A stretch of 64,000 nucleotides of DNA from Candidatus Cloacimonadales bacterium (GTDB lineage: Bacteria; Cloacimonadota; Cloacimonadia; Cloacimonadales; DAONDQ01), in NCBI GenBank assembly GCA_963662275.1, contig OY759316.1, positions 1,472,001-1,536,000 on the forward strand. The letters run 5' to 3'. This document shows positions 38,015 to 61,636 of this stretch, one piece after another (position 1 is the first letter of the stretch; every line of letters starts with the position of its first letter). The position numbers were made by a program, and so were the translations under genes. The notes under the pieces are model-generated. The model ran no database searches. It was not told the DNA's origin and worked only from the letters and a program-made list of their open reading frames with translations.

Positions 38015-40423
38015 TTATTTCATGAGAACGGCTTTCAGGAATGACTGCTGATTTCCAGCGGTCATATGAATGAGATAGATTCCGGAACCGCATTCCTGAC
38101 CATTACTATCAAAACAATCCCAAGATAATGTATGGTAACCTGTTCTTTTGAAGCCATTATTCAAAACACGTACTAATTGACCTTTTAAATTATAGATAGT
38201 GATCGTTGTTGTCACATCTTTTGTCAGGTTATAGCTTATGTTTGTGTAACCTGTAAATGGATTTGGATATACTAATTTGAGACCGGTTGTGTTAGCAATA
38301 GTAGGAGGTGGAGTTATTGATCCACCATCACCCACAACAGAAATGGATACTGGTCCGTTAAATCCTAAAGTACCATCGTTATCGACATTCTGTAACCAAT
38401 AGTAGTATATATTATCGGTAATAACATCCACGTCCTGGAAATTATATGTGTGGGTTTCTGCTGTATTTGTTGCCTGGATAAGACTGGAATTCACCTGAAT
38501 TGCGTTACTGAGGTTTACATCTGTCGAACGAAATACATTGTATCCACTTAAGGCAGTCTCTGATTGCGAAACCCATTGAAGACTAACAAATAATTCCTGT
38601 GTTAGATGAGCGTCAAAGGATGTCAATTCCACCGGCAATTCTTCTTCTATAATTGGTGAAAGTGTCCAGTATAATCCATTGTCACCAGGTGATGTGATCA
38701 CGGAGAGACCTGCAAGGACGACTGAACGTGTTGTTCCCAAGTCGTTCGTCGCTAAATCCATATAATATGTCCAAGGTGTAGGATCTGAGTTTAAATAGCC
38801 ACGATTCCAGCAACTAAGTAAGTCATCACTGTTTTCAGATTCATTATAGAATAATGTAATATCTACTGTACCGTCAACGCCACCCTGGGTTAACCAGGTT
38901 TCCGGTAAACTTATTCCATGACCGGCACCTAAATTGTTTGTTGTACCAGACCAGGTGGGCTGGAAACCGTATATGTAACTTGTCCCTGTAATCGCCATAT
39001 GATGCCTGGTCAGGGTAATCGTGTGATCGTTAAAGATCATTGTACCAGTAATGTATAAGTCTCTGGAGAGAGTTCTGTCTGCATGAATAGTAACACCTGC
39101 GGCATTGATGATAGTAAGATAAGCAGGTCCGTTCGAAGCTGGGAATTCCATACTATTCGTTAATTGCGCCGTTACACCTTTATATTCCAGAAATCCTAAG
39201 CTTCCAAAAGAAAGAATCTTTCCCGTACTGGAAGTCAGGTTTCCTTTGATGATCGAAAGAGTACCATTGATCGTACGATTTGCATGGAGATCTACGTTGG
39301 CACTGTTTTCAACGATCAGGCTATTGGGACCTGAAGATGAAGGGAATTCCATATCAGTGGAAGTCTGTAAAGAAGTTCCTGCATAATGAAGAATACCATC
39401 TTCTCCGAAAATGACGATTTTGCTTACCGTTGATGTGATGTTGCCGGCTTGAATCTTCAGTGTGCCATAAACAGTGGGTGTATCTTGAAGATTGATACCG
39501 CTAGAGTTATAAAGAGTAATATTCGATAATTCATGGGTAGTTGAATTAGTCACATGGTTAATTTCAGCACCTGTGATGATCCTGCCAACAGCCCCTTGAA
39601 GCTCGTATTGAAGCGTTGATCCGGTAGCATAAGAGAAATTATAAGCAGCATTACCTGTGGATAACAAGGCAGTTGTACTTAAGCGTTTTAAAGTCAATTT
39701 TCCACCGCTCTTGACGTTGACAGTGCCATTCAGACGTACACCCTGGATGGTCAGGTTACCATACAAATCGATTGTTGAACAATACGTTGTTGCCGTTGCA
39801 TTACGTAAACCGCATGTTCCCGTACAGATTAAGCTGGCTGCATTTGCTACATAGATCGTGCCAGTATTATCTGATCCCGTACCATCAATATAGAGGTTCT
39901 TTGGATCAGCAGGTCCACCAACTTGGAACGTACCGGATGTTACAATTAAATATCCAATTTCAATATCTGTATAAGTAGTACCAACTTGGCTTGTTGTTAA
40001 AGCAACTTCGCAAGTCCAATCACCATGCGATGCGCACCAGTTCAGTCCAAAAAGATAACGGGAGGCACCAACAAATTTCAGTCTTCCAGCACCACTTGTT
40101 GTGATGACGGGAGTGGTAAAACTGGTTGATGGTCCATTGACGACACCAGTGACTCTCAGGGTATAAATCGATATTGCGAGTCTGGTAGTAGGAGCGCTGA
40201 TACCGACCATAGTTAAATCATTACAGGATTCATTTTCCGTTAAGGTAACGGTGTGCCCATCAGAGATAATGGCATCATCACCAGCGATAGGGTAACCACC
40301 GCCGCCCCAGGTAGCTGCATTATTCCAATCGCCTGATCTTGTGCTTGTGTAAGTGGTGGAAAATAAGCTTAAACTGAATATTAGGAGTGTGAAAACAATA
40401 AAATAAAGCCTTAGATTTGCCAT
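38015..40423 (-). CDS. Secreted beta-repeat surface protein with FlgD-Ig/T9SS-like C-terminus
   Basis: SGDWNNAATW, internal EFP.S.GP repeat, LPVELTSF, YPNPF...IYNLKGQLVR. Confidence 0.8.
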   Translation of the reverse strand: MANLRLYFIVFTLLIFSLSLFSTTYTSTRSGDWNNAATWGGGGYPIAGDDAIISDGHTVTLTENESCNDLTMVGISAPTTRLAISIYTLRVTGVVNGPSTSFTTPVITTSGAGRLKFVGASRYLFGLNWCASHGDWTCEVALTTSQVGTTYTDIEIGYLIVTSGTFQVGGPADPKNLYIDGTGSDNTGTIYVANAASLICTGTCGLRNATATTYCSTIDLYGNLTIQGVRLNGTVNVKSGGKLTLKRLSTTALLSTGNAAYNFSYATGSTLQYELQGAVGRIITGAEINHVTNSTTHELSNITLYNSSGINLQDTPTVYGTLKIQAGNITSTVSKIVIFGEDGILHYAGTSLQTSTDMEFPSSSGPNSLIVENSANVDLHANRTINGTLSIIKGNLTSSTGKILSFGSLGFLEYKGVTAQLTNSMEFPASNGPAYLTIINAAGVTIHADRTLSRDLYITGTMIFNDHTITLTRHHMAITGTSYIYGFQPTWSGTTNNLGAGHGISLPETWLTQGGVDGTVDITLFYNESENSDDLLSCWNRGYLNSDPTPWTYYMDLATNDLGTTRSVVLAGLSVITSPGDNGLYWTLSPIIEEELPVELTSFDAHLTQELFVSLQWVSQSETALSGYNVFRSTDVNLSNAIQVNSSLIQATNTAETHTYNFQDVDVITDNIYYYWLQNVDNDGTLGFNGPVSISVVGDGGSITPPPTIANTTGLKLVYPNPFTGYTNISYNLTKDVTTTITIYNLKGQLVRVLNNGFKRTGYHTLSWDCFDSNGQECGSGIYLIHMTAGNQQSFLKAVLMK

Positions 40424-40683
40424 TAAATCCTCCCATTTTTTAACTTAGTAAAAATATATACTATGTATATACGTCAACCTAACTCAAGTTATTGATATTA
40501 TGGAGTGGAAATTATGTCAAGAAATAATTTGGATTTTGGAATTATTTGGGAGTATATATTTAGACTATAAAACTGAAATAAAATGATATCTCTCTAAGTA
40601 AATTAATGCTCGGATTACGAATGGAAGATAAGCAGAGATTTTACGTCTCTATCTGAGTGTTGAAAGCATAGGAAATACGTATT

Positions 40684-40716
40684 AAAAAGGCTGCCGAATG
40701 AATTCCAGCAGCCTTA
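40684..40716 (-). terminator. Intrinsic terminator
   Basis: AAAAAGGCTGC...GCAGCCTT. Confidence 0.65.
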
Positions 40717-40741
40717 TGTGACATTGAGTAAGAACTAATGA

Positions 40742-43693
40742 TTACTTCATCAGGATGATCTTCCTTGAGGATAGTGAATTCCCATCTTTCACCTGGACAA
40801 GATAAATACCACTCGGACAGGTTACATTCTTTGCATCAGTTCCATCCCAGGATAGATTATATTCACCCGCATTCTTCATACCTGTAGCCAATGTACGAAT
40901 GTGCTGTCCTTTCAGATTATAAATTTCAATCTTCACATCGGATGTTTTTGTGATCGAGAAGGGAATACTCACTGATTGATTGAAAGGATTTGGATACATA
41001 TTTTGTAAAACAAGATTCCCATTACTCGTGGGGGTTTGAGGAGTGTCAGGTGTACCTTTCCCTTTTAAGGTCAGGTTGAATGTTGGATAGAAACCGACTC
41101 GGGCTTCTTTTCCGCCACTGACATCAGTAATACCAAATACAAGGGTATGATCATCAGCCATCATATCAGTATTTCTGACTTTGATCGTAATTTCCTTTGG
41201 AGTTGAACATCCAGCCGGGAAAACAACTGTTTGTGGGACAAAGTTCTCAACTTCATTTGAATCCCCATCCCTGAAGATGATCTGGGCAATTGTGGGTTCA
41301 GTTGGGCTTGGATTTTCTATCGAAACATTCATTGTTACAGTACCGGTTTCCTTATCGAAGGCAGCACTTGCAGGACTGAATCCTAACACTGTATTAGTCG
41401 CTTTCGTTCCGTATACACTGGATACATATTCCGGGTGATCAATATACGGATTGCGATTTGTCAGGAAGGTCTTGATAGATGCATTACGATTAAATTCCCA
41501 GGTACTAACCGGATCAGCAGTATTCCAAGCGAGCATCGTGGGCAGCATATCCACACCGTCTATACTTAGGCTCATCTCGTAACGAGTGTTGAAATACAAC
41601 AATGCCCTAGCGCAATCACCTTTGTGTTGGGCTGATGGTTCAAACACAGTCTGTCCTGCTGCATTTGTTCCCCGTTTGCTGACATAGCCATTATATGAAG
41701 AATAGGTTGTTGTTTGAGTTGTTACTACACCATAGGGTATATTTCCCCTGGAAGAATTAACACCGGAGTTAGTAGGGAAAAGATGATGCAGATCCGCTGT
41801 CTTTTGATTCACTTCACTTGTGCCCATCCAGCTTTGGCAGAATGTATGCTCTGTATTTGGATCCGTACTGCCGGTATAGGTTGTTCCAACAGTATAATTC
41901 TGACCGATATACACACATTGAATAACATTTCCGGCTGTCAAATCGAGGGTTTGATACAGATACACTTTTGCTCCTGAATAACTTGAATATGTATTTGTAG
42001 AAATCAGATTATGTAAGCCTGTCTTTAATGCTGCACCGGTAAGACCTGCAACAGGAGTGTAATAACCATTGAATGGATCAGTGGCAGTGGTAGTCGCAGA
42101 AATAGTATTCGAGGAAGCACTCGTGCCGTAAGTGTTATAGGCTCGTACTCTGTAATAGTATATAGTAGAAGCACTTAATCCTGTCACTGATTTGGTTGTT
42201 GTTGTGACTACAAGATTATTGAAACCGGTGACGAAAGTACCGAATGAGTTACTTGTGGAGACATCCAGGTAATAACCTGTTGCACCTGTGGAAGCATTCC
42301 AGTTTGCCGTGAAACTGTTCAATGTAATCGAAGAGGCTGTTATCGCTACAGGTGCGGATGGTGCTGAACCGGCAGTACTGGTAGTAAAAGATAGATCAGT
42401 TCCATATGCAGTGCCAGCGCTGTTGGTTGCATAAGCTCTGACATGATAGAGCGTTGATGCAGTTAATCCTGTAATAGCGCTTGTGAATGTACCAGTACCA
42501 GTACCATTGGTTGTATGGTTTCCTGTTGCTACTGGATTTGCTGTCGTAGCCCAGCATACACCTTTTGCCGTGACAGAAGCTCCGCCATCAGCGGTAACAT
42601 TTCCTCCACTTGTGGCAGTTGTTGATGTGATTGCAGAGGGAGTAGTCGTTGAAACTGTCGGTATGACTGCTGCAGGGGTACTTGTAGTAAAAGACAGATC
42701 AGTTCCATAAGCAGTACCAGCGCTATTGGTCGCATAAGCTCTGACATGATAGAGCGTTGATGCAGTTAATCCTGTAATAGCACTTGTGAATGTACCAGTA
42801 CCAGTGCCGTTTGAAGTATGGCTTCCTGTTGCTACGGGATTTGCTGTTGTAGCCCAGCATACACCTTTTGCTGTGACAGAAGCTCCGCCATCAGCGGTAA
42901 CATTTCCTCCACTTGTTGCTATGGTTGTTGTTATTGCTGATGGAGTAGTAGTCGATACTGTCGGCACAGTAGCTGCAGCTCCTGCGGCAGTGATGGATAC
43001 ATTATCAATACCCAATCCTTGGGCATTTGTGGTTGTAGTACCGGATGTGACTGAATAATTCCAGGCAAGATATAGACTGCTTCCAGTTGCTAGTGTTGTC
43101 GTGAGTGTTTTACTCGTAACATTTGAAGTACTCCCGGGAGCAGTGGTGAAACCATTATTATCGGCATTGGCAGCAAAAGAAGTCAGGAAGTTTGCTCCCG
43201 CTGATGTCCATGTTGTTCCATTCGTTGAATAATACATTTGAATTGAATAACCAGCAGCATTTGAGCCATTCCGATATTTCTCAACACCATAAGAAATTGT
43301 GAAACTTGAAATAGAAGATGTTCCATTATTAGTTAATATCGTATATAGATTACCGCTAACTGTACCAGTTCCAGATGAAATCCAGCCTACAGCGCGATCT
43401 GTGGCAGTACTGGCAACACCGGCTCCATAATTGTAAATTCCGTTTCCAGCAGTGGAAGACATAGAATTTCCTGCTGATAGAGCTGTCGCTGTTAAAGCTG
43501 CAGAATATGTCCCCAATGTCCGAGCTGTAGTATTCTTATCTACCTTCCATCCGGTAGGTAAGGTTGCGGTAGCGCTTGTTCCAATGGTGAACCCTTCGGT
43601 TATGTTACCACCGGCACTTATGTTTATGGCTGAAAGGGTGGATATCGTAACCATAAAAATAAGAAGAATATAAACTAGATTCTTTTTCAACAC
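40742..43693 (-). CDS. Extracellular endonuclease I (EndA-like) with FN3 repeats and FlgD-like C-terminus
   Basis: NTEHTFCQSW, DLHHLFP..VNSSRGN, KGDCARALLYF, RNPYIDHPE; 303-bp internal duplication; likely GTG start at 43693. Confidence 0.85.
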   Translation of the reverse strand: MLKKNLVYILLIFMVTISTLSAINISAGGNITEGFTIGTSATATLPTGWKVDKNTTARTLGTYSAALTATALSAGNSMSSTAGNGIYNYGAGVASTATDRAVGWISSGTGTVSGNLYTILTNNGTSSISSFTISYGVEKYRNGSNAAGYSIQMYYSTNGTTWTSAGANFLTSFAANADNNGFTTAPGSTSNVTSKTLTTTLATGSSLYLAWNYSVTSGTTTTNAQGLGIDNVSITAAGAAATVPTVSTTTPSAITTTIATSGGNVTADGGASVTAKGVCWATTANPVATGSHTSNGTGTGTFTSAITGLTASTLYHVRAYATNSAGTAYGTDLSFTTSTPAAVIPTVSTTTPSAITSTTATSGGNVTADGGASVTAKGVCWATTANPVATGNHTTNGTGTGTFTSAITGLTASTLYHVRAYATNSAGTAYGTDLSFTTSTAGSAPSAPVAITASSITLNSFTANWNASTGATGYYLDVSTSNSFGTFVTGFNNLVVTTTTKSVTGLSASTIYYYRVRAYNTYGTSASSNTISATTTATDPFNGYYTPVAGLTGAALKTGLHNLISTNTYSSYSGAKVYLYQTLDLTAGNVIQCVYIGQNYTVGTTYTGSTDPNTEHTFCQSWMGTSEVNQKTADLHHLFPTNSGVNSSRGNIPYGVVTTQTTTYSSYNGYVSKRGTNAAGQTVFEPSAQHKGDCARALLYFNTRYEMSLSIDGVDMLPTMLAWNTADPVSTWEFNRNASIKTFLTNRNPYIDHPEYVSSVYGTKATNTVLGFSPASAAFDKETGTVTMNVSIENPSPTEPTIAQIIFRDGDSNEVENFVPQTVVFPAGCSTPKEITIKVRNTDMMADDHTLVFGITDVSGGKEARVGFYPTFNLTLKGKGTPDTPQTPTSNGNLVLQNMYPNPFNQSVSIPFSITKTSDVKIEIYNLKGQHIRTLATGMKNAGEYNLSWDGTDAKNVTCPSGIYLVQVKDGNSLSSRKIILMK

Positions 43694-43987
43694 ATTACAC
43701 CTCTCTTTTGATTTTTTTAGAATGTTCTGGTTTGACAAGTAACCACTTGAATCACATATGTTAATTGTGACATTTTGTGAAACCTTGCAAAAATAATGCA
43801 AGGATTTTATTTAGAAAAGATCATTTATTTTGTGTCTTGTGAATTTGATTAACCAAGAATCTGAAAGAAATCACGAATAAACCAGGAAAATTATGTAATT
43901 TCAAGATTGTTATATTTCGATTAACTTATTTATACATTTGTACATATCGTATCAATTCTCTCATCTGAATTGCACATGAAAACCAAA

Positions 43988-44016
43988 GCAGAGACGCCCA
44001 ACTTAAGCGTCTCTAC
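43988..44016. repeat. REP palindrome, degenerate copy of 31469
   Basis: GCAGAGACGCCCAACTTAAGCGTCTCTAC. Confidence 0.75.
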
Positions 44017-44146
44017 ACTGTGAACAATCCTTCATGACCACTAATTACTAGATAATATTCTATCAAAAAGGCAATTTACGAGATATCTCTTGACATATAG
44101 AAACATATTGTTTTAATCAAGACATATTTAGAGAAAGGAGTTTCTT

Positions 44147-45403
44147 ATGAAAAGATTTGGTAGTGTAATTTTAATCTGCTTATTACCACTTATATTAATC
44201 GGTATGAGTACAGATTGGATGAATCAGATTCGTACTCCAAACAATCCTTCAAATGTTGCTAATATCTTAAGTAAAATTGCGGATTTGAATGGCAGAGACA
44301 ATGCTCGTACCTGGATGCAATCGGAAGTCATTAATCAAAGTTGGACGACCGAATGGACAGGTACATTCCGGTCTGTATATACTTATAATAGTCAGGGTAA
44401 TATGGCAACAGTAACTTACTTTTTACCTGAAACCAATACTTCTGGATGGTCAACTTTCCAAAGAATTACTTATACTTATAATGAACAGAATTGGATGACG
44501 ATGGTATACTATGAATCGTTCTCTACTGGCAACTGGTTACCTCAATACCGCTTATTAGTGACATATACCGGTGAATTTTCTGCGGAGTCTGTTTCGCAAA
44601 ACTGGTCAACTGATACTAATTCCTGGACTGATACTTATAAGACTTTTATGACATACAATGCCTCTCATCAATTGGCCGAAAGCCTAATGCAATCCTACCA
44701 GGGAGAAAACCTGGTAAATGTGTCCAAGACAATTTATACCTATGAGAATGGGCATTATACAGAATTGTTAAGCCAGAGCTGGGTGAATTCTGTATGGGTT
44801 AACGGTGGAAGACAGCTTTTTACATATAATGGAAATGATGAAGTTTTGTATTATTATCAAGCTTGGACAAACGATGCTTGGCAAAACACAACAAAGAGAA
44901 CCACTAGTTATATTAGTCCCAGTCATCCAGAAGTTATTATCATTTATAATTGGGGTGCAGATATTACAGATTGGCAATTGTCTCAGCAATCACTCTATAT
45001 GTATGATGCAGATAATAACTATTCGATCATTTTGTCACAAAACTATACTGGTGGAACTTGGATCGATGCATCCAGGCAACTGTTTTCCTGGTCGAATATT
45101 ACAGGGAACGATGAGCAGATTTCTTCTGCTCCTGTAATGAGCTCTAGTAACTACCCCAATCCTTTTCACCAGGCTACATCGATTTGTTTTCAATTAAAAA
45201 AACAAGCGAGTGGGAATATTGAAATTTATAATATCAAAGGACAGAAAGTCAAAATAATTCCTTTCCAGTTTCAGTCAGGCAGTCATGAATTGAAATGGGA
45301 TGGTAGAGATGAGATGAATCGGGAAACTAGTTCCGGTATTTATTTGTATCATGTTAATGTCAATCATGTTCCTGTGATACGAAAAATGGTCAAGTTATTC
45401 TGA
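44147..45403 (+). CDS. Secreted Tyr/Trp-rich repeat protein with FlgD-like C-terminus
   Basis: Repeated YTY...Q.W....W units; NYPNPF...IYNIKGQKVK...WDGRD. Confidence 0.8.
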   Translation: MKRFGSVILICLLPLILIGMSTDWMNQIRTPNNPSNVANILSKIADLNGRDNARTWMQSEVINQSWTTEWTGTFRSVYTYNSQGNMATVTYFLPETNTSGWSTFQRITYTYNEQNWMTMVYYESFSTGNWLPQYRLLVTYTGEFSAESVSQNWSTDTNSWTDTYKTFMTYNASHQLAESLMQSYQGENLVNVSKTIYTYENGHYTELLSQSWVNSVWVNGGRQLFTYNGNDEVLYYYQAWTNDAWQNTTKRTTSYISPSHPEVIIIYNWGADITDWQLSQQSLYMYDADNNYSIILSQNYTGGTWIDASRQLFSWSNITGNDEQISSAPVMSSSNYPNPFHQATSICFQLKKQASGNIEIYNIKGQKVKIIPFQFQSGSHELKWDGRDEMNRETSSGIYLYHVNVNHVPVIRKMVKLF

Positions 45404-45420: not shown

Positions 45421-45449
45421 AAAAGTGGGGGCATCATCCCCACTTTTTT
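45421..45449 (+). terminator. Intrinsic terminator
   Basis: AAAAGTGGGG...CCCCACTTTTTT. Confidence 0.8.
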
Positions 45450-46009
45450 ATTCGTAAATGTTTTAATCTCTATTTAATGACTCATAACTGACTTATCTGT
45501 TTATACTAATTTATCTTTGAAGATTCTATATCAAAATAGAATAAAATCCGTTTTATGGACCTCGTTAAGGGTTTATGGTGTTTAATGTTGAATAGCATTT
45601 GTGCAATGATAATTGCAACTATATTTGTATTTCTAGTTTCATTAAATTAGATTTAGTTAAATAAATCTTGACGGTCTATTTGTTTTTTTATAAATAAATA
45701 AAGAGTTTATAATGCTTTTTAAAGTGTATTTAAAGCTCTAGTTAATCTCAATCAAAAAAATAGTTCGTTTACTTCGAAAGTATAATGCATTAGATGCAGA
45801 TGAGATGGTAGCGCAATTTAACTTTACTAATCTGCAGTGAGTGATCAATTGTACAACATGCATATTCTTCAACTGGATGGAACAGATTGGCGAGTACTAC
45901 TAAAGGAAGCGACCAGTAGGAATTTACGATATATAAATCGTTTGTAAAATTTTCAGAGTAAAGTATCTGCAAATAGTGAGCTAGTAAAAAAGTGCGAATG
46001 GAGAGAAGA

Positions 46010-48433
46010 GTGAGTTCCAATATCAGAGGCAAACAATTATTCATAAGCTATTCAAGTTCAGACATAGATTTTGCCAATAATCTATGTCTGATTCTTGAAG
46101 AGAATGGAGTGAACTGCTGGATTGCTCCGCGTGATATTAGACCCGGTTGTTATTGGGATGAAGAAATTAGCTATGCTGCTGATGAATGTAGTGGGTTGGC
46201 ATTATTGTTAAGTGAGAATTCGAATAGATCAGATATTGTGGCGAAAGAAGTAGCATTATTTGCGAGCAGAGGGAAAGCTATATTTCCATTAAGAATTGAA
46301 CCAGTGATACTCTCTAAGAGACTTGAGTTACATTGCAGTTCTCTTCATTGGATTGATTTAAAGGAAGAAGAATTACCCCAATGTGCGATAATGTTAGTAG
46401 ATTCCATAAAACAAAAATTGTGCATTTCAGACAGTGTATCCAATCAGACTGTATCAAGTGGTCAGTATGTTCAATCATCATTACCATTCTCATCCAACCC
46501 GATAGGAAATATGATATCTAGTGAAATCTCGTATAGTAATGCAATTGCCAGATTAGGTATATGTCCTTTGACTTATCATCGAGAAGTACTGATACAAAAA
46601 GGACTAATTGCCTTGAGGAATGGGAAATTCCAAGGTATTTTATTACAGGGCTTACCTGGTTGTGGTAAAACAACCTTGATGGTAGAAATAGCACAGGAAG
46701 TGAAAAGCGATTTTGATATATTTATTAGCTTTCGCTTTAGCGGGCAGCGAGAGATAGATCCCTCTTTCTTCATTTATGAACTAAACAAATGCTTAAAATG
46801 CATAGGTCGTGAAATAGATACCGCAGGGATTCAAAAGGCAGATTTCAGGATTATTTTGCAGAACTTGGTATCCCGATTATCAGATCAAAAGGTATTGCTT
46901 TTGCTTGACTCAGTCGATATGGCACCACTTGGAGTCATCGACACATTACTTAGTGCGTTACCAGTTGCACCACATGTAAGAACAATAATGACAGCTCAAC
47001 TCAGAGTCACTGGAAAATTAGGAGCAACTGCCATAGATGTTCCTCAGTTATTAATTGAAGAGACTGAGGAATTAATCCATCTATTTTCTGATTTGACGGG
47101 TATAGAAATAGATGTGAGTGATTTTATTACAAAATTACCTAAATATGTTGTCTGTAATCCATCTGCTCTGATGGTTGTATTAAGGAATCTTATTGACATC
47201 CCCTTGGAATTTCTCTTACCTGATAATCTGCCTGAGGAATCGAGAGTCGCTTTTGAGATGAATAAGCATATAATAGAATCATTGACCAGCGAAGAAAAAG
47301 ATCTCTTATGTTTAATCGCATTTTTTGATGATGTGAAATTGATTTCGGTTCGAGAAGCGCTTTTAATTACATTTCCTATCAATTTTGGTCAATTAATCGG
47401 TAAGTTAGTAGATCGCTCACTTATCACACGTACTGGAGACAGTTTCTATGTAGCTTCAATTGTGTGGGATGGTCTTGTCGAGGTTTGTGGTGATCGTATT
47501 CAATCTATTGCCCAGAAATTAGCCACAGCGGTTGAATCTTCAACACAAAAAATTCAAAGATTGAACTCTGATGAGGCAGATAACTTAGCACTTCCTATAT
47601 GTGCAGTGATTCATAAACTTCATGAACTGAAAATGTGGGATTTACTGATAACTCTAACCTGTGAAAAATTCTTGGAAACCTTGAACATTAGAGGTTTTTG
47701 GAAAGAATACTGGTATATTTTGCGACTGTTATTCGATTCTTATCGAAGTTCTGGTAATTTATTAGCTGGAGCTGGGATTGGGTTTAGGATTCTCAGAAAA
47801 GCTTTCCAGATGAAGGATGAGGCACTTGGGAAAAAGATTCTTCAAGAACTTTCACAAGTAATACTGATTGAGGATTCGCTGAATTATGCTGAACTGTTGA
47901 GCCATACTGCTTTATATACTGAACGAAGTGTAAATCCGGAACAAGCTTTAAAAGAACTTGAGGAAAGCTGCAGAATTAGAGAAAAATTAGGAGATTCGAT
48001 AGGATTGGCAATCGTAAAAAAATTAATCGGGAATATCTACCTTAGAAAAGGTGAATTTACTAAAGCGAGCGAATATTACAAAGAATCGTTAGGACTCTTG
48101 GAAAAGTTACAGGATGAGTTCAAGCAATCTCTGGAAACCGAAACCAGCTTAGCATTGTGTGATTTGATGTCTGGTCATGTTGAAGTGGCAGAAAATAGGC
48201 TTCGTGAAGTCATCGAGATGTGTCACAGAACTGGTTATATGGCTGGTTTACCTCGGGCATATTATCATTTAGTATTGGTGATGAATCAACTTGGCCGATT
48301 TCTAGAGGGTGTTCATTACGCAGAGCTAGCGATTATCGAAGCGAAGAAAACTTTTTCGGATATTGCCATAGCTGCGAATCTGTTGCTATCTTTTTGTCAG
48401 CAAAAAATAGTACATGAAGGAGAAGAAAAATGA
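46010..48433 (+). CDS. TIR domain - STAND/NB-ARC-like NTPase - TPR protein
   Basis: FISYSSSD, WIAPRDI.PG, SDIVAKEV (TIR Glu), Walker A GLPGCGKTT, Walker B LLLLDSVD, C-terminal TPRs; GTG 46010 after GGAG (ORF track start 45992). Confidence 0.85.
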   Translation: MSSNIRGKQLFISYSSSDIDFANNLCLILEENGVNCWIAPRDIRPGCYWDEEISYAADECSGLALLLSENSNRSDIVAKEVALFASRGKAIFPLRIEPVILSKRLELHCSSLHWIDLKEEELPQCAIMLVDSIKQKLCISDSVSNQTVSSGQYVQSSLPFSSNPIGNMISSEISYSNAIARLGICPLTYHREVLIQKGLIALRNGKFQGILLQGLPGCGKTTLMVEIAQEVKSDFDIFISFRFSGQREIDPSFFIYELNKCLKCIGREIDTAGIQKADFRIILQNLVSRLSDQKVLLLLDSVDMAPLGVIDTLLSALPVAPHVRTIMTAQLRVTGKLGATAIDVPQLLIEETEELIHLFSDLTGIEIDVSDFITKLPKYVVCNPSALMVVLRNLIDIPLEFLLPDNLPEESRVAFEMNKHIIESLTSEEKDLLCLIAFFDDVKLISVREALLITFPINFGQLIGKLVDRSLITRTGDSFYVASIVWDGLVEVCGDRIQSIAQKLATAVESSTQKIQRLNSDEADNLALPICAVIHKLHELKMWDLLITLTCEKFLETLNIRGFWKEYWYILRLLFDSYRSSGNLLAGAGIGFRILRKAFQMKDEALGKKILQELSQVILIEDSLNYAELLSHTALYTERSVNPEQALKELEESCRIREKLGDSIGLAIVKKLIGNIYLRKGEFTKASEYYKESLGLLEKLQDEFKQSLETETSLALCDLMSGHVEVAENRLREVIEMCHRTGYMAGLPRAYYHLVLVMNQLGRFLEGVHYAELAIIEAKKTFSDIAIAANLLLSFCQQKIVHEGEEK

Positions 48434-48690
48434 GTGAAACTTTAGATGATATCGCATTACGAAGGCTCATTACTGATGAGATGCAAAAAAGGGTATTAGA
48501 AGTGATAAGTTGTAACGGGTGGTTAAATTTGGATAGTAGATCAAACTATGAATCTATTCCAGAGTTTATTGCTTCAAACGGTCATGATATCAAAAAAGTA
48601 CAAATGATTTTTGAAGACATTTGGGTTCATTTTAACACTGAAGTTGTTTTACCACTATCAACCGAGATTGCTCCATATTTTTCTGGATAA
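48430..48690 (+). CDS. 86-aa hypothetical protein or peptide precursor candidate
   Basis: ATGA overlap with the upstream stop; 9-nt gap to the next gene. Confidence 0.7.
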   Translation: MSETLDDIALRRLITDEMQKRVLEVISCNGWLNLDSRSNYESIPEFIASNGHDIKKVQMIFEDIWVHFNTEVVLPLSTEIAPYFSG

Positions 48691-48699
48691 TAAATCACA

Positions 48700-50628
48700 A
48701 TGAAGAATTTTGACAAGCTTACTAAATTGCTTATTCATGCAGGACTTAATAGTCCCTACTATGCCGATAAGATATCAATAAATCAAGATACTCCCCCTGA
48801 GGCTATAGAATCTTATCTAAATTCAATACCAATTCTTAATAAAAGAGATGTTAGACAAAAAAAGCACAGAATGCTGTCATCTATTGCTGATCTTTCTGAG
48901 ATTAAAAGACTACAAACTACAGGAACTACCGGTGAGCCTCTTGATATATTTGTTGATAAGTCATTTATCAATAATGAAAATCTTCTTTTCGGTAAGCATA
49001 TCACGCGATGTCTTAGAAATTCCGATTGGACTTCAAAAATAACCTATTACCTTCAGCTACATGCTAGTGCAACTTCAAATTGTATGCCTGCAATATGGAA
49101 TCCAAACAGCTACGTCGTGAAATGGAACCTTGCACGAGCCTGGCAAGCGACGGATAATCATTTCCTAGAGTACCTGGACAGAATCAATGATTGTGTTGTA
49201 ACTACAATGCCATCCGTAGCAGATTTATTATGCAGGAGAATTACTGAAGCAAAAGCGATTGGGCGAATAAAACCTTTACTTGTGATTTGTTCTGGTGAAT
49301 CACTCTCAGAAAAAGTAAGAGATAAGATTCAAAGTGCTTTTCAATGTCCTGTTACATCATTATATACAATGACAGAATCTGGAATAGCGGCTTTTGAAAT
49401 AGAAAATGGATTGTATGATGTGGAAAGTGATTCGGTATTTCTTGAAATATTAGATGAGAATGCAAAACGAGTTAATCCTGGTGTAGAAGGAAACATTATT
49501 GTGACCGTCCTGAATAATTTCATCATGCCATTAATCAGGTACCAAACTGGTGATAGAGGTAGTTGGACAGATAACGGGCTATTAAGAATCAGCGAAGGAA
49601 GAATTCCGTACCATTTGATAACAACTTCAGGTGGGACTGTCAATTCAGTAAGATTCGCAAAAATACTGGCATCTTTGAATGTCGAAAAGTATGCTTTTAG
49701 CCAGGATGAGTCGGGCGCTATCACTTTCTCCTATTTTTCGACTGATAACCAATTAGATTCTATGAGTTGCAATGTTATTCAGGCAGCAATTTTAGGTTCA
49801 ATTGGACCGGGTATGAAAGTAATATTTAAGAGGTTAACTGAACCGGAGAAAGTATCGGAATATGATAATCGAAAAGTATCATTAAATCAAATTTCTGTGA
49901 AGTCCGCTGAACAGATTGGACCAAATATTGAGGAAGTTTCGAGTTGGTTAAAGAGTGTTCTTAGTAATGAACCTCAAATATTTTCTGCTGTTCTGACCGG
50001 TTCTTTTTTAGATTTGACTGGTTCAACCCGATATAGTGATATTGACCTAGTTATTTTTGTAGAAGGGAATCCGATAGCTACTCGTTGGTTAATGCTTACA
50101 AAGAAGCTAAAAAAAAGAATTCCTTCAATTTCTGTACATATAGATACCCAGAAAGACTTACATAAACGCTCTCCCATGCTTGCATGTCGTTTGCTACGAG
50201 AACACAGTCAAGTTATAGGGTATCCCATCGAAGATGTTGTGCTATTGCCTGATACAAAACTCATCAAAGAACAAGGTGTTTATCGAAGCCAGGAAGTTCT
50301 TGGGCTTTTACAGTTACAACTGGCAAATGTTGAACAAGATAGATTGAATCCGATTCGTGAAGCATGGATTACACGGAAGTTCCTGATAGATATTTTTCGA
50401 TATAGATATATCCTCCAGGGAGAGCAAGAAACTTCTTTATCTTACATTGTTCAGAAAATGCAAAATGATCCTATCATCAATATTCAGGAACTCAAGTGCA
50501 TTGATAATATGCATCAAACTGCCTGCGAATATATTCCGCCACTCTCAGATTATGAACAAATTTCATCTTGGTATTATGTAGCATTAAAACTTATTAAAGA
50601 TGTTCAATGTGAAATTATGAATAATTGA
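48700..50628 (+). CDS. PaaK/CapK-like adenylate-forming enzyme fused to a pol-beta-type nucleotidyltransferase domain
   Basis: PILNK, TTGTTGEP, SGE, YTMTESG, MPLIRYQTGD, EGR; then LTGS...SDIDLVIFV and a helical C-terminus. Confidence 0.8.
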   Translation: MKNFDKLTKLLIHAGLNSPYYADKISINQDTPPEAIESYLNSIPILNKRDVRQKKHRMLSSIADLSEIKRLQTTGTTGEPLDIFVDKSFINNENLLFGKHITRCLRNSDWTSKITYYLQLHASATSNCMPAIWNPNSYVVKWNLARAWQATDNHFLEYLDRINDCVVTTMPSVADLLCRRITEAKAIGRIKPLLVICSGESLSEKVRDKIQSAFQCPVTSLYTMTESGIAAFEIENGLYDVESDSVFLEILDENAKRVNPGVEGNIIVTVLNNFIMPLIRYQTGDRGSWTDNGLLRISEGRIPYHLITTSGGTVNSVRFAKILASLNVEKYAFSQDESGAITFSYFSTDNQLDSMSCNVIQAAILGSIGPGMKVIFKRLTEPEKVSEYDNRKVSLNQISVKSAEQIGPNIEEVSSWLKSVLSNEPQIFSAVLTGSFLDLTGSTRYSDIDLVIFVEGNPIATRWLMLTKKLKKRIPSISVHIDTQKDLHKRSPMLACRLLREHSQVIGYPIEDVVLLPDTKLIKEQGVYRSQEVLGLLQLQLANVEQDRLNPIREAWITRKFLIDIFRYRYILQGEQETSLSYIVQKMQNDPIINIQELKCIDNMHQTACEYIPPLSDYEQISSWYYVALKLIKDVQCEIMNN

Positions 50629-50925: not shown

Positions 50926-51028
50926 TGCATAAATAAACGAGAAATTTAAGGGCTATTTACTGCATAAATAAACGAGAAATTTAAGGGCTATTTACTGCAT
51001 AAATAAACGAGAAATTTAAGGGCTATTT
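50926..51028. repeat. 35-bp tandem repeat x3
   Basis: TGCATAAATAAACGAGAAATTTAAGGGCTATTTAC at 50926, 50961 and 50996. Confidence 0.95.
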
Positions 51029-51454
51029 TTGTGAAAGTACGATATACAAGACAATGGATAATACTATTATAATATCAAATTGAATCCACATAGTATCAGA
51101 AATACGATTTATAGCTTTGGTTTGTTGAGCATTCATATATAAAGCAAATTCACGATCGGTCATTTTACTAATGTCGGGAGCTTGGTATCCTGGAACTGTG
51201 ATGTTTTCAAGCTTGTTATCTCTACCTGCAGCAATTAACCCAGCTTTGACATCTACACCATTATCATCCAGGAGAGTAGCAACCTGGTTCTTATAAATCA
51301 CCACCATTCCCTTATCTGTATTAACAACAAAACTCCTGGCATCATTTGATTTGATGGTTCCTGTGATAATGCGTCCATCTGTGGTGGTAAAGACAAGAGC
51401 ATTGGATATAACAACGAATGTGAACAGGATAAAGATTGAAATAAGCTTCTTCAT
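51023..51454 (-). CDS. Exported protein with C-terminal TM, likely co-transcribed with the repressor
   Basis: Signal peptide, SD GGAGG, 9 nt downstream of the repressor stop. Confidence 0.75.
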   Translation of the reverse strand: MKKLISIFILFTFVVISNALVFTTTDGRIITGTIKSNDARSFVVNTDKGMVVIYKNQVATLLDDNGVDVKAGLIAAGRDNKLENITVPGYQAPDISKMTDREFALYMNAQQTKAINRISDTMWIQFDIIIVLSIVLYIVLSQK

Positions 51455-51463
51455 GATTTCCTC

Positions 51464-52135
51464 CTAATAGCGCCTAAAACAGAACATGAGAACACCGATA
51501 ATTTCGATGTCCCGGGTTTCTTCCCAATGAAATACAATGGGATCGTAGCATTGATTGATAGGGATCAGCAAAGTGGTTTCGCATTTATGGTTATAGATTA
51601 GTCTCTTCAAGGTAATACCACCATCCACCCGGAAGGCACAAATCTTATGGTCCAGAGCCAGCCTGTCAAAGTCACTATTGATGAGGATGATATCCCTATG
51701 CATAATCTCCGGTTCCATGCTGGACCCATGCACTCTAAAACAGATGATCTTATCTGGATGTGGGATCAATGACTTCTCCAGGGTAATGTGCATTAGGGGT
51801 TCCTGGTTGTTATATATTTCAATGGGCGGACCCGCGGCTATCTCCCCCACAACCGGAATACTAATAGTACGCGCGCGAGGGGATGGAAGATTTAAGATTG
51901 AAGATTGAATATCTTGGGGATCGGAAAGGAACATGGAGCCTTCCCCGGTGAGAAGCCAGTTGATATTGACGTTATAGACTTTTGACAGGGATTTAAGAAA
52001 ATCGGATTCAGGGGTTGTTTTATCATTAATATATCGACTGATAGCAGCTTGGGTATAGCCTAAAGCTTGCGAAAAATCAACTTGATTCAAATTATTTTCA
52101 AGACGTATCTTATTGATACGCTTACCAATGCACAT
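51464..52135 (-). CDS. CI-like phage repressor (XRE HTH plus S24 peptidase)
   Basis: LNQVDFSQALG.TQAAISRY, NINWLLTGEG, IAAG cleavage site, GSSMEP, TLKRL. Confidence 0.92.
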   Translation of the reverse strand: MCIGKRINKIRLENNLNQVDFSQALGYTQAAISRYINDKTTPESDFLKSLSKVYNVNINWLLTGEGSMFLSDPQDIQSSILNLPSPRARTISIPVVGEIAAGPPIEIYNNQEPLMHITLEKSLIPHPDKIICFRVHGSSMEPEIMHRDIILINSDFDRLALDHKICAFRVDGGITLKRLIYNHKCETTLLIPINQCYDPIVFHWEETRDIEIIGVLMFCFRRY

Positions 52136-52151
52136 CTTTAACCCCTTTTTA

Positions 52152-52203
52152 TATACAGTTCAGTATATTTAATTATTGACATATATACTGAGCTGTATAA
52201 AGT
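52152..52203. promoter_or_regulatory. Divergent promoter/operator region
   Basis: Inverted 17-mers TATACAGTTCAGTATAT (52152) and ATATACTGAGCTGTATA (52183) flank TTGACA (52176). Confidence 0.7.
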
Positions 52204-52266
52204 CTGTCTTATGTATGACGTGAAGGCAGTAATAAGTCAAGGAAAATTTATAAAGTGAGGTTTACT

Positions 52267-52512
52267 ATGGAGATAAAGAAAACGTACACACGAGAGCAAA
52301 TCAAGGCAGCAATGGCGTTGAAGCGATTAAACGTCTATAAATTGGCTGCTAAACTTCAATTAAGCAGCAGGCAGACCAACAGATTGATTTCCTGCAACAA
52401 CAATCAAGTATCTGAACGTAGTAATGATCAAATGATAGAGGCTCTACAGCCTCATTTGGAAGCGATCGCCAAATTAGAAGCTAAATTAGCTAAGAAGGAG
52501 AGAGTAGCATGA
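52267..52512 (+). CDS. Ner/Cro-like small HTH protein
   Basis: EQIKAAMALKRLNVYKLAAKLQLS; divergent from the repressor; ATG after GAGGT. Confidence 0.65.
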   Translation: MEIKKTYTREQIKAAMALKRLNVYKLAAKLQLSSRQTNRLISCNNNQVSERSNDQMIEALQPHLEAIAKLEAKLAKKERVA

Positions 52513-53282
52513 TTCAGCGATATACTAATAAGCAATTGCAGGTTTCACTTGGGATCAGCAGACAGGCAGTGGATAAACGTGCTCTCAAGGAAGGCTGGAA
52601 GTCAGAAATCGTTTATGAACGTGGTACGCACAATAAATATTATTGGGTGGACCTGCAAAGCAACCAAAGCAACCAAAGCAACCAAAGCAACCAAAGCAAC
52701 CAAAGCAACCAAAGCAACCAAAGCAACCAAAGCAACCAAAGCAACCAAAGCAACCAAAGCAACCAAAGCAACCAAAGCAACCAAAGCAACCAAAGCAACC
52801 AAAGCAACCAAAGCAACCAAAGCAACCAAAGCAACCAAAGCAACCAAAGCAACCAAAGCAACCAAAGCAACCAGTTGACTCCCGAAGAGCGGGCGGAGCT
52901 AGATGCAATCAATGTTGTACTGCGTAAGAGGGTATGGTGGAAGCCATTTAAGAACGAAAAAGGACTATATCCATACCGATTGAATGATGGACCTGTGGTT
53001 TTGGCGACTTTTAGCACAATGGAATCGTTCAAAGACTATTTTGGACCCAATGACAAAGTAAAGTTTTTAGTCGATAATGAATATCAGGAAATCAAGATGA
53101 TCCGCTTTGATATGCCTGATATTATGGTGAGTTTAGAGCCGATGGATATGACCAACACCGAGGAACTGGAGACCTTCCTGGCTATCGGCTTGGAAAACTG
53201 TTTGATATGGATGGATGAGGAAGCAGGAAGCAACCTGAAGGATGCTACTACCGATGCTACAACCAAGAGGGAGGAATCATGA
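52509..53282 (+). CDS. Mu-type DNA-binding domain protein with a (QSN)24 tract
   Basis: LGISRQAVDKRALKEGW resembles a Mu HTH. Confidence 0.65.
   Translation: MIQRYTNKQLQVSLGISRQAVDKRALKEGWKSEIVYERGTHNKYYWVDLQSNQSNQSNQSNQSNQSNQSNQSNQSNQSNQSNQSNQSNQSNQSNQSNQSNQSNQSNQSNQSNQSNQSNQSNQLTPEERAELDAINVVLRKRVWWKPFKNEKGLYPYRLNDGPVVLATFSTMESFKDYFGPNDKVKFLVDNEYQEIKMIRFDMPDIMVSLEPMDMTNTEELETFLAIGLENCLIWMDEEAGSNLKDATTDATTKREES
52656..52871 (+). repeat. Perfect 9-bp microsatellite (CAAAGCAAC) x24, in frame
   Basis: 216 bp / 9 = 24 copies. Confidence 0.95.
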
Positions 53283-54058
53283 TTTATAGCTTAATTGGTT
53301 GGATTTTAGCGGTCATCTTCTTTTGTCGGATGATCTGGAGCGAGATGCACTTTTGCAAGCGTTATGATCAGATGATCCTGGGTCGTGAAATCGACAAGCG
53401 GAAGTATGAAGCTGATCTGAAAGGGAAAGAAACGGAGATGGCAGAGATTAGAACGCATCTTTTCAACGCAGAAAGAATGCTGGATGATTTCCGGGCGGGG
53501 ATTACGTACCAGGTACCGGAGTTCATGAAAGAAGATGTTAACCACGGAACAGTCGAAAGCAGAGCAGAGGAAATATCTGATGATGAGCCAATAGGAGTTG
53601 ATGAAGGGTGTGAGGTATTTCACATCAGTCCCAAGAATCCATTACCACGTGGGCATGAATTAGAAAGAGCTTATGAAAAACCTACATATGAAGAATTAGG
53701 TGATATCAACATATATGGGATTTCTGGAAAGTTACTTATGTTCATCGAAGCGCACGAGGAAACAGCACTGGAATTGATTGATCAGTATTCTATCACTCTC
53801 GAGAGATCTGAATGGTTTGAAATAGACAGCAGTCTGCAGACCGACATCATCCATAAGATACTATTTGCAACGGCTGCGACATCCACACACGAAGCACCAC
53901 ACCTGATGACTATATCATTACCAATCCATGAATGGAGACAAATCAAAGACGAACTGAATATAAAAAATCCGCTCAGTCCGCAGGATACGCACATTACGCA
54001 GAGTCCGCAGACTATTGACCCGTCATTAGATACAATGCATATAGAAGCACAGGCTTAA
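53279..54058 (+). CDS. Phage hypothetical protein (N-terminal TM, coiled coil)
   Basis: GGAGG SD, ATGA coupling. Confidence 0.6.
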   Translation: MIYSLIGWILAVIFFCRMIWSEMHFCKRYDQMILGREIDKRKYEADLKGKETEMAEIRTHLFNAERMLDDFRAGITYQVPEFMKEDVNHGTVESRAEEISDDEPIGVDEGCEVFHISPKNPLPRGHELERAYEKPTYEELGDINIYGISGKLLMFIEAHEETALELIDQYSITLERSEWFEIDSSLQTDIIHKILFATAATSTHEAPHLMTISLPIHEWRQIKDELNIKNPLSPQDTHITQSPQTIDPSLDTMHIEAQA

Positions 54059-54163
54059 GGCTTATGGCTGCCCTCTCTTCAGTAGGATCGGCATCCTACT
54101 CCACACTGAGGGCAGAGATAAGATTTAAGAGTGAAGAATTAAGAGATAAGAATTGGAGAGAAG

Positions 54164-55135
54164 ATGATGCAAACTGAATATGGAGTTTCGATATTAGCTG
54201 ACAGCATGCAATATATGCAGACCATTGAAGATAATAGCATAGATTGTATTATGACAGATCCTCCATATGGCATATTAGGTAAAGACAACCTTATAGAAAC
54301 CAATATAGATACTGACGTATTCTTCAAATATGCATATCGGATTCTAAAAGATGATACATTTATAGCTTTCTTTGGGCAATATCCGACTCTACCAAGATGG
54401 ACTCGATCGGCGGAAGATGCAGGATTTAAATACGTTGATCATATAGCCTGGATAAAGCGTATTCCCAGCGGTGGAATACAGCCTTTATCGAGAGCACATG
54501 AAAGCTTTATGATATATAAGAAAGGGAAACCAAGCTATATTAAGACTAAAGGTAAATATGAAGATGTGAAAGTCCCTGGTGTAATGTTTGATACAGTTAC
54601 CCTTGAAGGTATTTCACGTTATATTGATAGCTTGTGGAGAAAGAAACAAGGAATTTCAACAGAAATACGCAGAGGTAGTGAAAAGACAAATTGGCATAGC
54701 ATAATAAACAGTTGTCCATCTTCGGATAGATGTCCAAGAGAATGTAATTATACTAATGTATGGTCATTTTTGAGTCATAATCAGCAAAATAGAGGTTCAA
54801 AGAATTCGAAGAAGTTAAAAGGCTTTGGGCATCCAACGATAAAACCAATACAATTTTTAGAAAGAGCTATTTGCTTATTATCAAAACCAGGTGATACAAT
54901 CCTAGATCCCTTTTCGGGTACCGGAACTACAGCAATAGCATGTATAAAAAACGAGCGCAATTATATAAATATCGAGATCATTCAAGAGTTTCACGAACTG
55001 AGTTTAGAACGCATAATTGATGAAATAGCAATAAAAAACGAACAATTTGATTTTAAAGGCTACGTTACCTCCACATCAGAACTCCAGGAAGGGGGAGAAG
55101 TCGACAGCTCCCCCGCTATTTTTACGGAAAATTGA
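54164..55135 (+). CDS. N6-adenine/N4-cytosine DNA methyltransferase (beta class)
   Basis: TDPPY, HPTIKP, ILDPFSGTGTT. Confidence 0.92.
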   Translation: MMQTEYGVSILADSMQYMQTIEDNSIDCIMTDPPYGILGKDNLIETNIDTDVFFKYAYRILKDDTFIAFFGQYPTLPRWTRSAEDAGFKYVDHIAWIKRIPSGGIQPLSRAHESFMIYKKGKPSYIKTKGKYEDVKVPGVMFDTVTLEGISRYIDSLWRKKQGISTEIRRGSEKTNWHSIINSCPSSDRCPRECNYTNVWSFLSHNQQNRGSKNSKKLKGFGHPTIKPIQFLERAICLLSKPGDTILDPFSGTGTTAIACIKNERNYINIEIIQEFHELSLERIIDEIAIKNEQFDFKGYVTSTSELQEGGEVDSSPAIFTEN

Positions 55136-55157
55136 TGTGGAATAAAAGGAAATTCTG

Positions 55158-55451
55158 ATGATAGTTTCACAAGTAATTAAAGAGCGGATAACCCTATATG
55201 TCTTGAAAAGTACGACATGGGAAGATGCTCCCCTGCAAGTTGAAATCAAAGGGAATGTGTCAGAACTGACTAAGCTGAGAAATATGATCGACTGTGCTAT
55301 CAGCTATGTTGCCGGCAAAACCAACGGCTTTGATGAAGATGATATTGATACACTGCACTTTACCGTGGAAGCCTATTCAGATGATAAGAAGCTGCGTGAG
55401 AAAATTGATAAAGGACCATCGCCAGAGAATCCTTTTGGATGTGGAAAATGA
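55158..55451 (+). CDS. Phage hypothetical protein
   Basis: SD AAAGGA; overlaps the transposase start. Confidence 0.6.
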   Translation: MIVSQVIKERITLYVLKSTTWEDAPLQVEIKGNVSELTKLRNMIDCAISYVAGKTNGFDEDDIDTLHFTVEAYSDDKKLREKIDKGPSPENPFGCGK

Positions 55452-59227: not shown

Positions 59228-59238
59228 TTGGAGAGAAG

Positions 59239-61629: not shown

Positions 61630-61636
61630 GTAAAAG

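Follow-up and report, generated by a model that had tools for sequence, protein, structure and literature searches.

A candidate bacterial defence cassette of a STAND receptor, a small protein whose C-terminal tail is conserved, and a double AMP-transferring enzyme

Bacterial STAND (NLR-like) receptors are usually thought to be single proteins that bind phage proteins directly; the antiphage proteins Avs, bNACHT and TIR-NLR act alone, sensing phage proteins directly. Peptide-processing systems coupled to TIR-AP-ATPase-TPR proteins are described in those sections of Kaur et al. 2020 (eLife, PMC7159879) that deal with FxSxx-COOH systems; according to these sections, small, fast-diverging proteins with conserved C-terminal peptides always accompany the AP-ATPase-TPR protein. 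Here we analyse a window of 64,000 nucleotides from a Candidatus Cloacimonadales bacterium (NCBI GenBank assembly GCA_963662275.1, contig OY759316.1, positions 1,472,001 to 1,536,000 of the forward strand; coordinates below are those of the window), in which an 86-aa open reading frame (ORF) ending in APYFSG (48430..48690, forward strand) is the middle gene of a three-gene cassette. An initial annotation had read this ORF as a leader-core peptide precursor of a system analogous to FxSxx-COOH. Because the small protein travels between a STAND sensor and a double AMP-transferring enzyme, it looks like a part of an undescribed defence module and not like a classical peptide precursor. The cassette as a whole looks like a conflict system built on a STAND protein, with a small protein conserved at its C-terminus, and is apparently undescribed: full-text searches gave no description of a STAND, small protein and PaaK-ANT cassette, although supplementary tables, which those searches did not cover, might list such operons.

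The resemblance to the FxSxx-COOH systems is one of architecture. As those systems are presented in the sections of PMC7159879 devoted to them, both have a small, fast-diverging protein whose C-terminus is its best conserved part and comes in several lineage-specific tail types, and in both this protein is always coupled to an NB-ARC/AP-ATPase with C-terminal TPRs, which in one type begins with an N-terminal TIR, and also to an enzyme that modifies peptides. The cassette, however, is without the FxSxx end, the zincin peptidase, the radical SAM/SPASM enzyme and the vWA-MoxR core; its enzyme joins an ANL ligase to an ANT-like adenylyltransferase, and its small protein has a conserved folded core. 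Indeed, the small protein of the window ends in A-P-Y-F-S-G and the others in LPK or [IV]DG, so that the FxSxx end is absent. In the window and at three other loci (L001, L085 and L092), neither the cassette nor the genes next to it showed a radical SAM/SPASM enzyme or a zincin-like peptidase in Pfam scans, and the FxSxx_TPR model (NF040586) gave the TPR protein of the window 26.2 bits, against a cut-off of 300. The FxSxx-COOH analogy of the initial annotation therefore stands at the level of architecture, in parallel with Kaur et al., but membership fails on every feature tested.

The translation of the small ORF, MSETLDDIALRRLITDEMQKRVLE...LPLSTEIAPYFSG up to its stop codon, has the N- and C-terminal strings and the length of 86 aa that had been reported for it. 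A Shine-Dalgarno-like AAGGAG, read from the sequence (48417..48422, forward strand), lies 7 nt 5′ of its ATG, which shares bases with the TGA of the STAND gene (ATGA overlap), and 9 nt separate its stop codon from the start of the gene for the 642-aa enzyme. Upstream, a strong terminator-like hairpin (45421..45447, forward strand; an 11-pair stem and then a T run) ends the preceding gene, and the cassette operon begins downstream of it. The only terminator-like site that we saw among the three cassette genes is a weak one of 5 pairs, within the STAND gene; as no comparable hairpin lies inside the three-gene block, we read 45992..50628 as a single operon. The GC content of the block, 0.34-0.38, is near that of its surroundings. 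Could the ORF be a chance one, or an untranslated spacer between two real genes? A single-sequence search found no homolog, as would be expected of such an ORF. The strong Shine-Dalgarno sequence and the coupling of start and stop codons argue against it, and so does the filling of the same slot in five of five loci across two phyla, with core motif and tail shared; we regard this reading as scarcely credible. Since the slot is occupied at every one of the five loci with readable upstream DNA, the ORF is beyond chance, and on the sequence evidence it is a genuine gene for a small, predicted helical protein.

These loci came from a word-indexed search with the enzyme, which gave 113 proteins including the query. 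Fifty of the 112 non-self matches span at least 85% of the query at 28-40% identity (E ≤5e-60) and keep both modules. DNA upstream of the enzyme gene could be read at five loci, namely the window, L001 (a Streptosporangium contig end), L085 (a metagenome contig), L092 (genome G714) and L094 (genome G1133). A small ORF lies immediately 5′ of the enzyme gene at all five, frameshifted in L094, and at the four loci other than the window its stop codon abuts or overlaps that gene's start. In four of the five (not L094) the small ORF is immediately preceded by a STAND-TPR gene on the same strand, and the genes flanking the cassette are unrelated in every locus. In L094 (8215..8800 of the G1133 sequence) the N-terminal part with the first motif stands in one frame, and FWMSSGHDLNEL...ALPK, closed by a stop codon, in another, behind a stop. 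This copy lacks the cognate STAND-TPR gene; it may be a cassette in decay or an artefact of assembly.

The STAND gene (45992..48433, forward strand) encodes 813 aa with, from N- to C-terminus, a TIR domain, an NB-ARC-type P-loop NTPase, a helical region and a TPR array. Pfam matches were found for TIR_2 (E 6.5e-18, 65.8 bits, cut-off 28), NB-ARC (E 1.7e-7, 31.2 bits, cut-off 23.5) and TPR_12 (E 6.8e-10, 39.4 bits, cut-off 30.1). Judged by these domains, the protein has the architecture of STAND/NLR-like conflict systems, a P-loop NTPase with C-terminal repeats and an N-terminal effector. Together with the Pfam domains of the enzyme, they bear out the placement of the small ORF between a TIR/NTPase/TPR gene and a gene for an adenylating enzyme. 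In BLASTP comparisons the protein is orthologous to the predicted STAND proteins of L001 (28% identity over 590 aa, E 8e-52) and L085 (24% over 467 aa, E 5e-20); that of L092 is probably equivalent, given its matching Pfam pattern. The N-terminal module differs between loci: TIR in the window, a DUF7379 hydrolase-like domain in L085, two hydrophobic stretches with no recognised Pfam domain in L001, and no Pfam domain in L092. An effector-NTPase-repeat sensor, swappable N-terminal effectors and a sporadic, mobile distribution are also features of the single-gene Avs, bNACHT and TIR-NLR proteins; the STAND gene of the cassette, in contrast, is strictly linked to two extra genes. PADLOC models for single-gene STAND antiphage systems gave no meaningful match to the cassette.

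The enzyme gene (48700..50628, forward strand) encodes 642 aa with Pfam matches to AMP-binding (E 2.8e-8) and to a Pol-beta nucleotidyltransferase (E 9.2e-5). Its first part, about residues 1-395 (48700..49884, forward strand), is a PaaK-like adenylate-forming (ANL) domain, as judged by the Pfam AMP-binding match and by PDB profile matches; in the profile search the phenylacetate-CoA ligases 9s3l and 4r1l matched at E ~1e-25. A pairwise alignment of the N-terminal 395 residues with PaaK-like ligases was also made, and PaaK and PaaK-like ANL ligases (PDB 9s3l, 4r1l, 2y27, 6siw and AjiA1 6wuq) align to this part of the enzyme. Unlike these ligases, the ANL domain of the cassette is fused to a second AMP-transferring module, and the genomic partner of the enzyme is a protein and not an aromatic-acid pathway. 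It has the ANL motifs TTGTTGEP (P-loop-like), YxxTE and YxTGD, and the residues T73/G75/G78, Y222/E226/G228 and Y281/D285 vary little or not at all among 36 homologs. The domain falls far below all NCBIfam equivalog cut-offs, the best being the DVU_1553 family (102 against 300). Identity with PaaK itself was rejected (TIGR02155, 31.5 against 646; NF041878, 43.9 against 700): the fold is PaaK-like, but the enzyme is not PaaK.

Residues 400-642 (49897..50628, forward strand) form an AadA/ANT-like two-domain adenylyltransferase module, with a Pol-beta nucleotidyltransferase (NTase) core and a helical domain. The AlphaFold2 model of this part, made from a 14-sequence alignment, has a predicted local distance difference test score (pLDDT) of 93, and its best Foldseek matches were ANT(3'')(9), AadA and AAD(9) (E 5e-6 to 8e-5), with a template modelling score of ~0.6-0.65 across the whole module; ANT(4'), Hailong HalB, antitoxins of the MNT type, LinB and GlnE were matched as well. 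The NTase core with a helical substrate-binding domain is thus shared with AadA, ANT(3'')(9), AAD(9) and MntA-type MNT proteins, as is the GS...DxD catalytic signature, which is invariant in the family of the cassette enzyme (G434, S435, D447 and D449 in 36 homologs). Identity to the cassette module is, however, 10-15%, and the cassette module sits behind an ANL domain. Because the catalytic motif residues are conserved, both halves of the enzyme look catalytically competent. According to PDB titles among the Foldseek matches, MntA AMPylates a small helical protein partner, and the NTase side of the enzyme does resemble MNT. The cassette was nevertheless rejected as a HEPN-MNT toxin-antitoxin pair, with no HEPN match in Pfam and no Rx4-6H motif seen in the alignment.

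The NTase module was found in one of 232 genomes of the phylum of the window, the genome of the window itself, and in the actinobacterial samples from the family and the class of genome G233 in 2 of 301 and 2 of 351, G233 included. It was found in none of 401 sampled cyanobacteria and none of 351 sampled Myxococcota. Because not all first-look candidates were scored in these searches, some carriers may have been missed. A search of genome contigs gave mostly generic PaaK-like genes; the top locus of 79, L001, is a syntenic ortholog, and the matches of the others are confined to the N-terminal, PaaK-like part of the query and have weaker E-values. Four loci on viral contigs match the ANL part only, and the NTase profile matched none of the viral contigs. 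None of 65 matching plasmid records spans at least 80% of the query, phages gave no match, and a metagenome scan gave two loci, one of which (L084) is without the upstream part. A genome of the same genus, G100, has 63-79% DNA identity to the window region in the longer matches, which are not syntenic, and is too divergent for island borders to be read. The cassette thus appears to be sporadic, as expected of a mobile defence gene. A three-gene unit whose effector head can be swapped, whose distribution is patchy and whose neighbours change usually marks a mobile conflict or defence system, which this cassette presumably is.

The family of the small protein was assembled with a profile of three syntenic small ORFs, which retrieved seven more proteins, all of a high-GC, actinobacteria-like type; P0135, from the cluster of P0037, was then added, and the ORF of L094 is the twelfth member. 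The relatives are 122-153 aa long, against 86 aa in the window. In an 11-sequence alignment L10, F46, G51 and D53 (numbering of the window protein) are invariant. The core motif, F-x4-G-x-D, is FIASNGHD in the window (residues 46-53; 48565..48588, forward strand); the wider core, FWVxGGHDxxEL in most members, is FIASNGHDIKKV in the window protein, and the longer members have a second, degenerate copy of the motif upstream of it. The core resembles FFxxGGHSL, the motif of peptidyl carrier proteins (PCPs). The small protein might therefore be an acyl acceptor, onto which the adjacent adenylating, PaaK-like domain would load an acyl group, as in DltA/DltC or in an adenylation domain and its PCP. 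In all 11 sequences, however, Asp stands where the phosphopantetheinyl Ser would sit; PP-binding (PF00550) matched none of ten members up to E 10; the structural model, of which only one of five versions is confident, is a helical hairpin with short helices and does not look like the four-helix bundle of an acyl carrier protein (ACP); and there were no carrier proteins among the Foldseek or VIA-align rows. The PCP/ACP reading, prompted by FWVxGGHD and by VVLPLSTEIAP in the window, was rejected on these grounds (no PP-binding match, Asp for Ser, a model that does not look ACP-like). The carrier alternative offered by the initial annotation thus finds no match to PF00550 and Asp in place of Ser, and we consider it very improbable.

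The C-terminal tail is the second conserved element. In the window it is STEIAPYFSG (residues 77-86; 48658..48687, forward strand), which fits the family pattern [DS]-x-[EDN]-[VIL]-x-x-[WYLI]-[LFI]-x-[KG]-COOH. The 12 small proteins end in LPK (8 of 12), in [IV]DG (3 of 12) or, in the window, in FSG, in the same register throughout, and in those other than the window protein the C-terminus comes exactly ten residues past the last core helix. Six of the eight LPK tails are D-x-EVGDWLPK, one is DADVIDLLPK and one RREAFGALPK; the three others are DLNLLSI[IV]DG. EVGDWLPK, identical in six of six, is the longest invariant block of this six-member group, though identity between the bodies falls to 53-64% in its more divergent pairs. 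Similarly, the core of P0135 is only 33% identical to that of P0121, but its tail is still DADVIDLLPK. MAFFT places STEIAPYFSG of the window in the same columns as DxEVGDWLPK and DLNLLSI[IV]DG. When scored against the eight distinct tails, the window tail was the top scorer of the 77 ten-mers of its own protein and lay within the top 0.7% of 32,700 ten-mers from the reading frames of the window; 4 of 258 ORF C-termini scored at or above it. The syntenic small ORFs thus do have a conserved C-terminal motif, anchored at the C-terminus, as the initial annotation had suggested checking.

A small protein with a fast-diverging body, a conserved C-terminal end and a modifying enzyme next to it is also what would be expected of a precursor of a ribosomally synthesized and post-translationally modified peptide (RiPP), as the FxSxx-type analogy suggests. 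In that case the N-terminal helix would be the leader, and the tail a core peptide that is adenylated or nucleotidylated, then cleaved and released as a toxin or signal. Neither in nor beside the cassette (window, L001, L085 and L092), however, is there a peptidase, an exporter or a RiPP recognition element; the relatives are long and carry two copies of a structured motif; and the residues that are most invariant are found in the core, and not in the tail alone. The proposal of a leader-core precursor thus fits poorly with the 122-153 aa of the relatives, with the folded model and the invariant internal core, and with a cassette that encodes no protease or exporter; we consider it improbable.

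The AlphaFold2 model of the small protein, from a 10-sequence alignment, is all-helical, with a helix at residues 5-27, two short helices and a helix at 54-84. Fold searches with it were uninformative: the best Foldseek match in the PDB had an E of 3.4 and that in the BFVD viral library an E of 2.2, and VIA-align against 48,161 chains gave generic helical rows only (best Z 7.3). The model and these searches gave no evidence of a beta-grasp, ACP-like or HEPN fold. Single members had weak Pfam matches (Death, E 0.1; VMAP-M8, E 0.0055; SelB-wing_2; DinB_2). The nearest clusters in the ESM Atlas, at a score of 0.87, below the level of 0.9, carry the automatic name 'immunity protein', which is a lead only.

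Two proteins of 783 aa, P0037 and P0136, join the small protein to the enzyme. They are non-identical database sequences, found alongside the separate P0135 and P0139 in a metagenome cluster. We considered them as a Rosetta-stone fusion and rejected this, since the same 90% cluster holds separate proteins of 132 aa and 649 aa. The joined proteins depart from P0135 right after DRFL, as expected of a single-base frameshift close to the 3′ end of the small ORF. Because the separate forms share the cluster and the divergence is frameshift-like, we do not count P0037 as evidence for binding; the joined form is an error or a mutant allele. A profile search for longer, fused forms of the small protein found none, which is weak evidence.

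The explanation that we favour, on balance, is that the small protein is the cassette-encoded partner of the 642-aa enzyme, either its substrate or a docking subunit, and that the free C-terminal tail is its working element. As the cassette crosses phyla, the enzyme must use universal metabolites or an item encoded by the cassette; since its gene always travels with that of the enzyme, to which it is translationally coupled, the small protein is the natural candidate partner. All twelve tails share just one chemical group, the alpha-carboxylate, which sits at a constant distance from the core. C-terminal peptides are classically read by TPR arrays, as EEVD is by Hop and SKL by PEX5. A STAND sensor (TIR/NB-ARC/TPR), the small protein and the PaaK-like plus AadA/ANT-like enzyme make up a horizontally mobile three-gene cassette, and the ten-residue tail is carried at the free C-terminus of a predicted helical core with F-x4-G-x-D. 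In the proposed mechanism, the enzyme would act on this tail or by way of it. The state of the tail would then be read by the STAND protein through its TPR array, and the reading would gate oligomerisation of the NTPase and release of the NAD-consuming TIR effector, as in abortive-infection defence. Our results establish the gene, the cassette, the identities of the domains and the conserved tail, whereas all of these binding and chemical steps, and the role in defence, are inferred. The shared alpha-carboxylate, the adjacent carboxylate-adenylating ANL domain, the reading of peptides by TPRs and the coupling set out in the FxSxx-COOH sections of Kaur et al. (PMC7159879) are the reasons for favouring a model centred on the tail.

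Several observations weigh against the favoured explanation. A phmmer search of 1.84 billion representatives with the small protein retrieved, apart from the query, only six unrelated proteins with repeats (Ig-like, HA-domain and ankyrin), which are spurious because their scores sum over repeats. In hhalign, the window protein matched the ten others at E 0.076 over 22 columns (residues 42-63), in the expected register. Because this direct similarity is weak, its probable place in the family is supported chiefly by the synteny, since both flanking genes are clear orthologs, and further by the core motif and the tail. All members other than that of the window belong to one high-GC, actinobacteria-like branch. 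The terminal residue varies by lineage (Lys or Gly), the 11-sequence alignment has no invariant Ser, Thr, Tyr, Cys or Lys, and P0037 and P0136, in which a frameshift joins the small ORF to the enzyme, are without the tail. The best model of the small protein has a pLDDT of 82, the other four are poor (56-64), and the tail is drawn as the end of a long helix at a pLDDT of ~57. The P-loop NTPase closest to the cassette in L094 lies on the opposite strand and is not orthologous (E 0.66). Finally, PADLOC defence models matched neither the small protein nor the enzyme, beyond weak matches to the NTase core.

Some of the same observations are what a non-covalent regulator would predict. The small protein would then be an antitoxin- or chaperone-like subunit that only binds the enzyme or the STAND protein, inhibiting or stabilising it, with the tail as a docking helix; the true substrates of the enzyme would be common metabolites or phage molecules. 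Tail hydrophobics do fall at i, i+3 and i+4 (V..WL, I..YF, L..II), the tail is modelled as a helix, and the alignment offers no invariant nucleophile. Among the structural relatives of the second module, AadA, ANT and LinB have small molecules as substrates, and Hailong HalB produces oligonucleotide signals. A docking helix, however, needs no tail fixed exactly at the C-terminus, as it is in all 12 proteins. A purely non-covalent docking or inhibitory role is as consistent with the data as the favoured explanation; we hold it to be the less likely, though a serious contender.

Within the favoured explanation, adenylation or nucleotidylation of the tail is possible by analogy with systems that adenylate C-termini: E1 enzymes with ubiquitin-like proteins, Cap2 of CBASS with the C-terminus of the CD-NTase, and MccB with microcin C7. 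In such systems, and possibly in the cassette, the free C-terminus of a small product is activated with ATP by an adjacently encoded enzyme. The enzymes of these systems are E1-like, and their substrates are beta-grasp proteins or short peptides ending in Gly or Asn; the cassette enzyme, in contrast, is of the ANL type, and its small protein is helical with Lys or Gly as the last residue. In its boldest form, the model would make the cassette a novel type of system for activating protein C-termini and would have an ANL-type ligase, and not an E1, adenylate the alpha-carboxylate of the small protein, and the ANT-like module make a protein-nucleotide adduct or conjugate a target, so that the modified tail switches the TIR-STAND-TPR receptor on or off. 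This is speculative, and we think it rather unlikely; if true, it would be immune signalling by ubiquitin-like logic built from unrelated parts. A ubiquitin-like modifier as such was rejected, there being no beta-grasp fold, no universal C-terminal Gly and no adjacent E1-like enzyme. Ubiquitin-like modifiers differ from the small protein, whose model is all-helical, 8 of 12 of whose tails end in Lys and whose neighbouring enzyme is ANL-type and not E1.

The strict linkage of an NB-ARC/TPR receptor to a two-headed AMP-transferring enzyme and a small protein points to a regulatory layer of protein or ligand modification. It extends the theme of FxSxx-type systems, a small protein with a conserved C-terminal peptide next to an AP-ATPase-TPR protein, to other chemistry and beyond Actinobacteria. 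To our knowledge, adenylation of protein C-termini by ANL enzymes was not known before; if the ANL enzyme does adenylate the tail, this would be new enzymology of protein C-termini and would provide a tractable three-gene model for the gating of an NLR-like sensor. If the small protein is a docking subunit only, the cassette would still be a new candidate defence cassette.

Downstream of the cassette, the window holds a Mu-like transposable prophage (51023..64000). Its genes include a helix-turn-helix and S24 peptidase repressor (51464..52135, reverse strand), a transposase with a Mu-transposase C-terminal domain (55439..57793), a TniB/MuB-like AAA protein (57930..58658), N6/N4 and C5 DNA methylases (54164..55135 and 59986..61224), DUF3164 (61822..62469) and ORF6N (63091..63729). 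Between the cassette and the repressor-side genes of the prophage lies a perfect 35-bp tandem repeat of 2.9 copies (50926..51028; TGCATAAATAAACGAGAAATTTAAGGGCTATTTAC), which may represent transposase-binding sites at the prophage end; with the repeat taken as that end, the cassette would lie just outside the prophage. A perfect 9-bp repeat, CAAAGCAAC, is present in 24.2 copies (52656..52873) inside the ORF 52509..53282 and encodes a long (QSN)n run; because its copies are perfectly identical, it suggests recent expansion or a phase-variable length. The Mu-like transposase gene has two further repeats, CGACAAC x6.7 near its 5′ end (55629..55674; protein string DNQ) and a perfect AGGGAAC x6.3 at its 3′ end (57745..57788; protein string GNREQGT). 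Upstream of the cassette, three consecutive genes (38015..45403) encode large secreted proteins of 802, 1019 and 418 aa; the third has a C-terminal sorting domain of the type IX secretion system type (Por_Secre_tail/FlgD_ig), and the other two have, by eye, similar C-terminal strings. Further upstream, two ORFs of 443 aa (11272..12603 and 13282..14613) share a strand, each begins with TTG and they are separated by 2 kb; they may be duplicated genes or copies of an insertion sequence.

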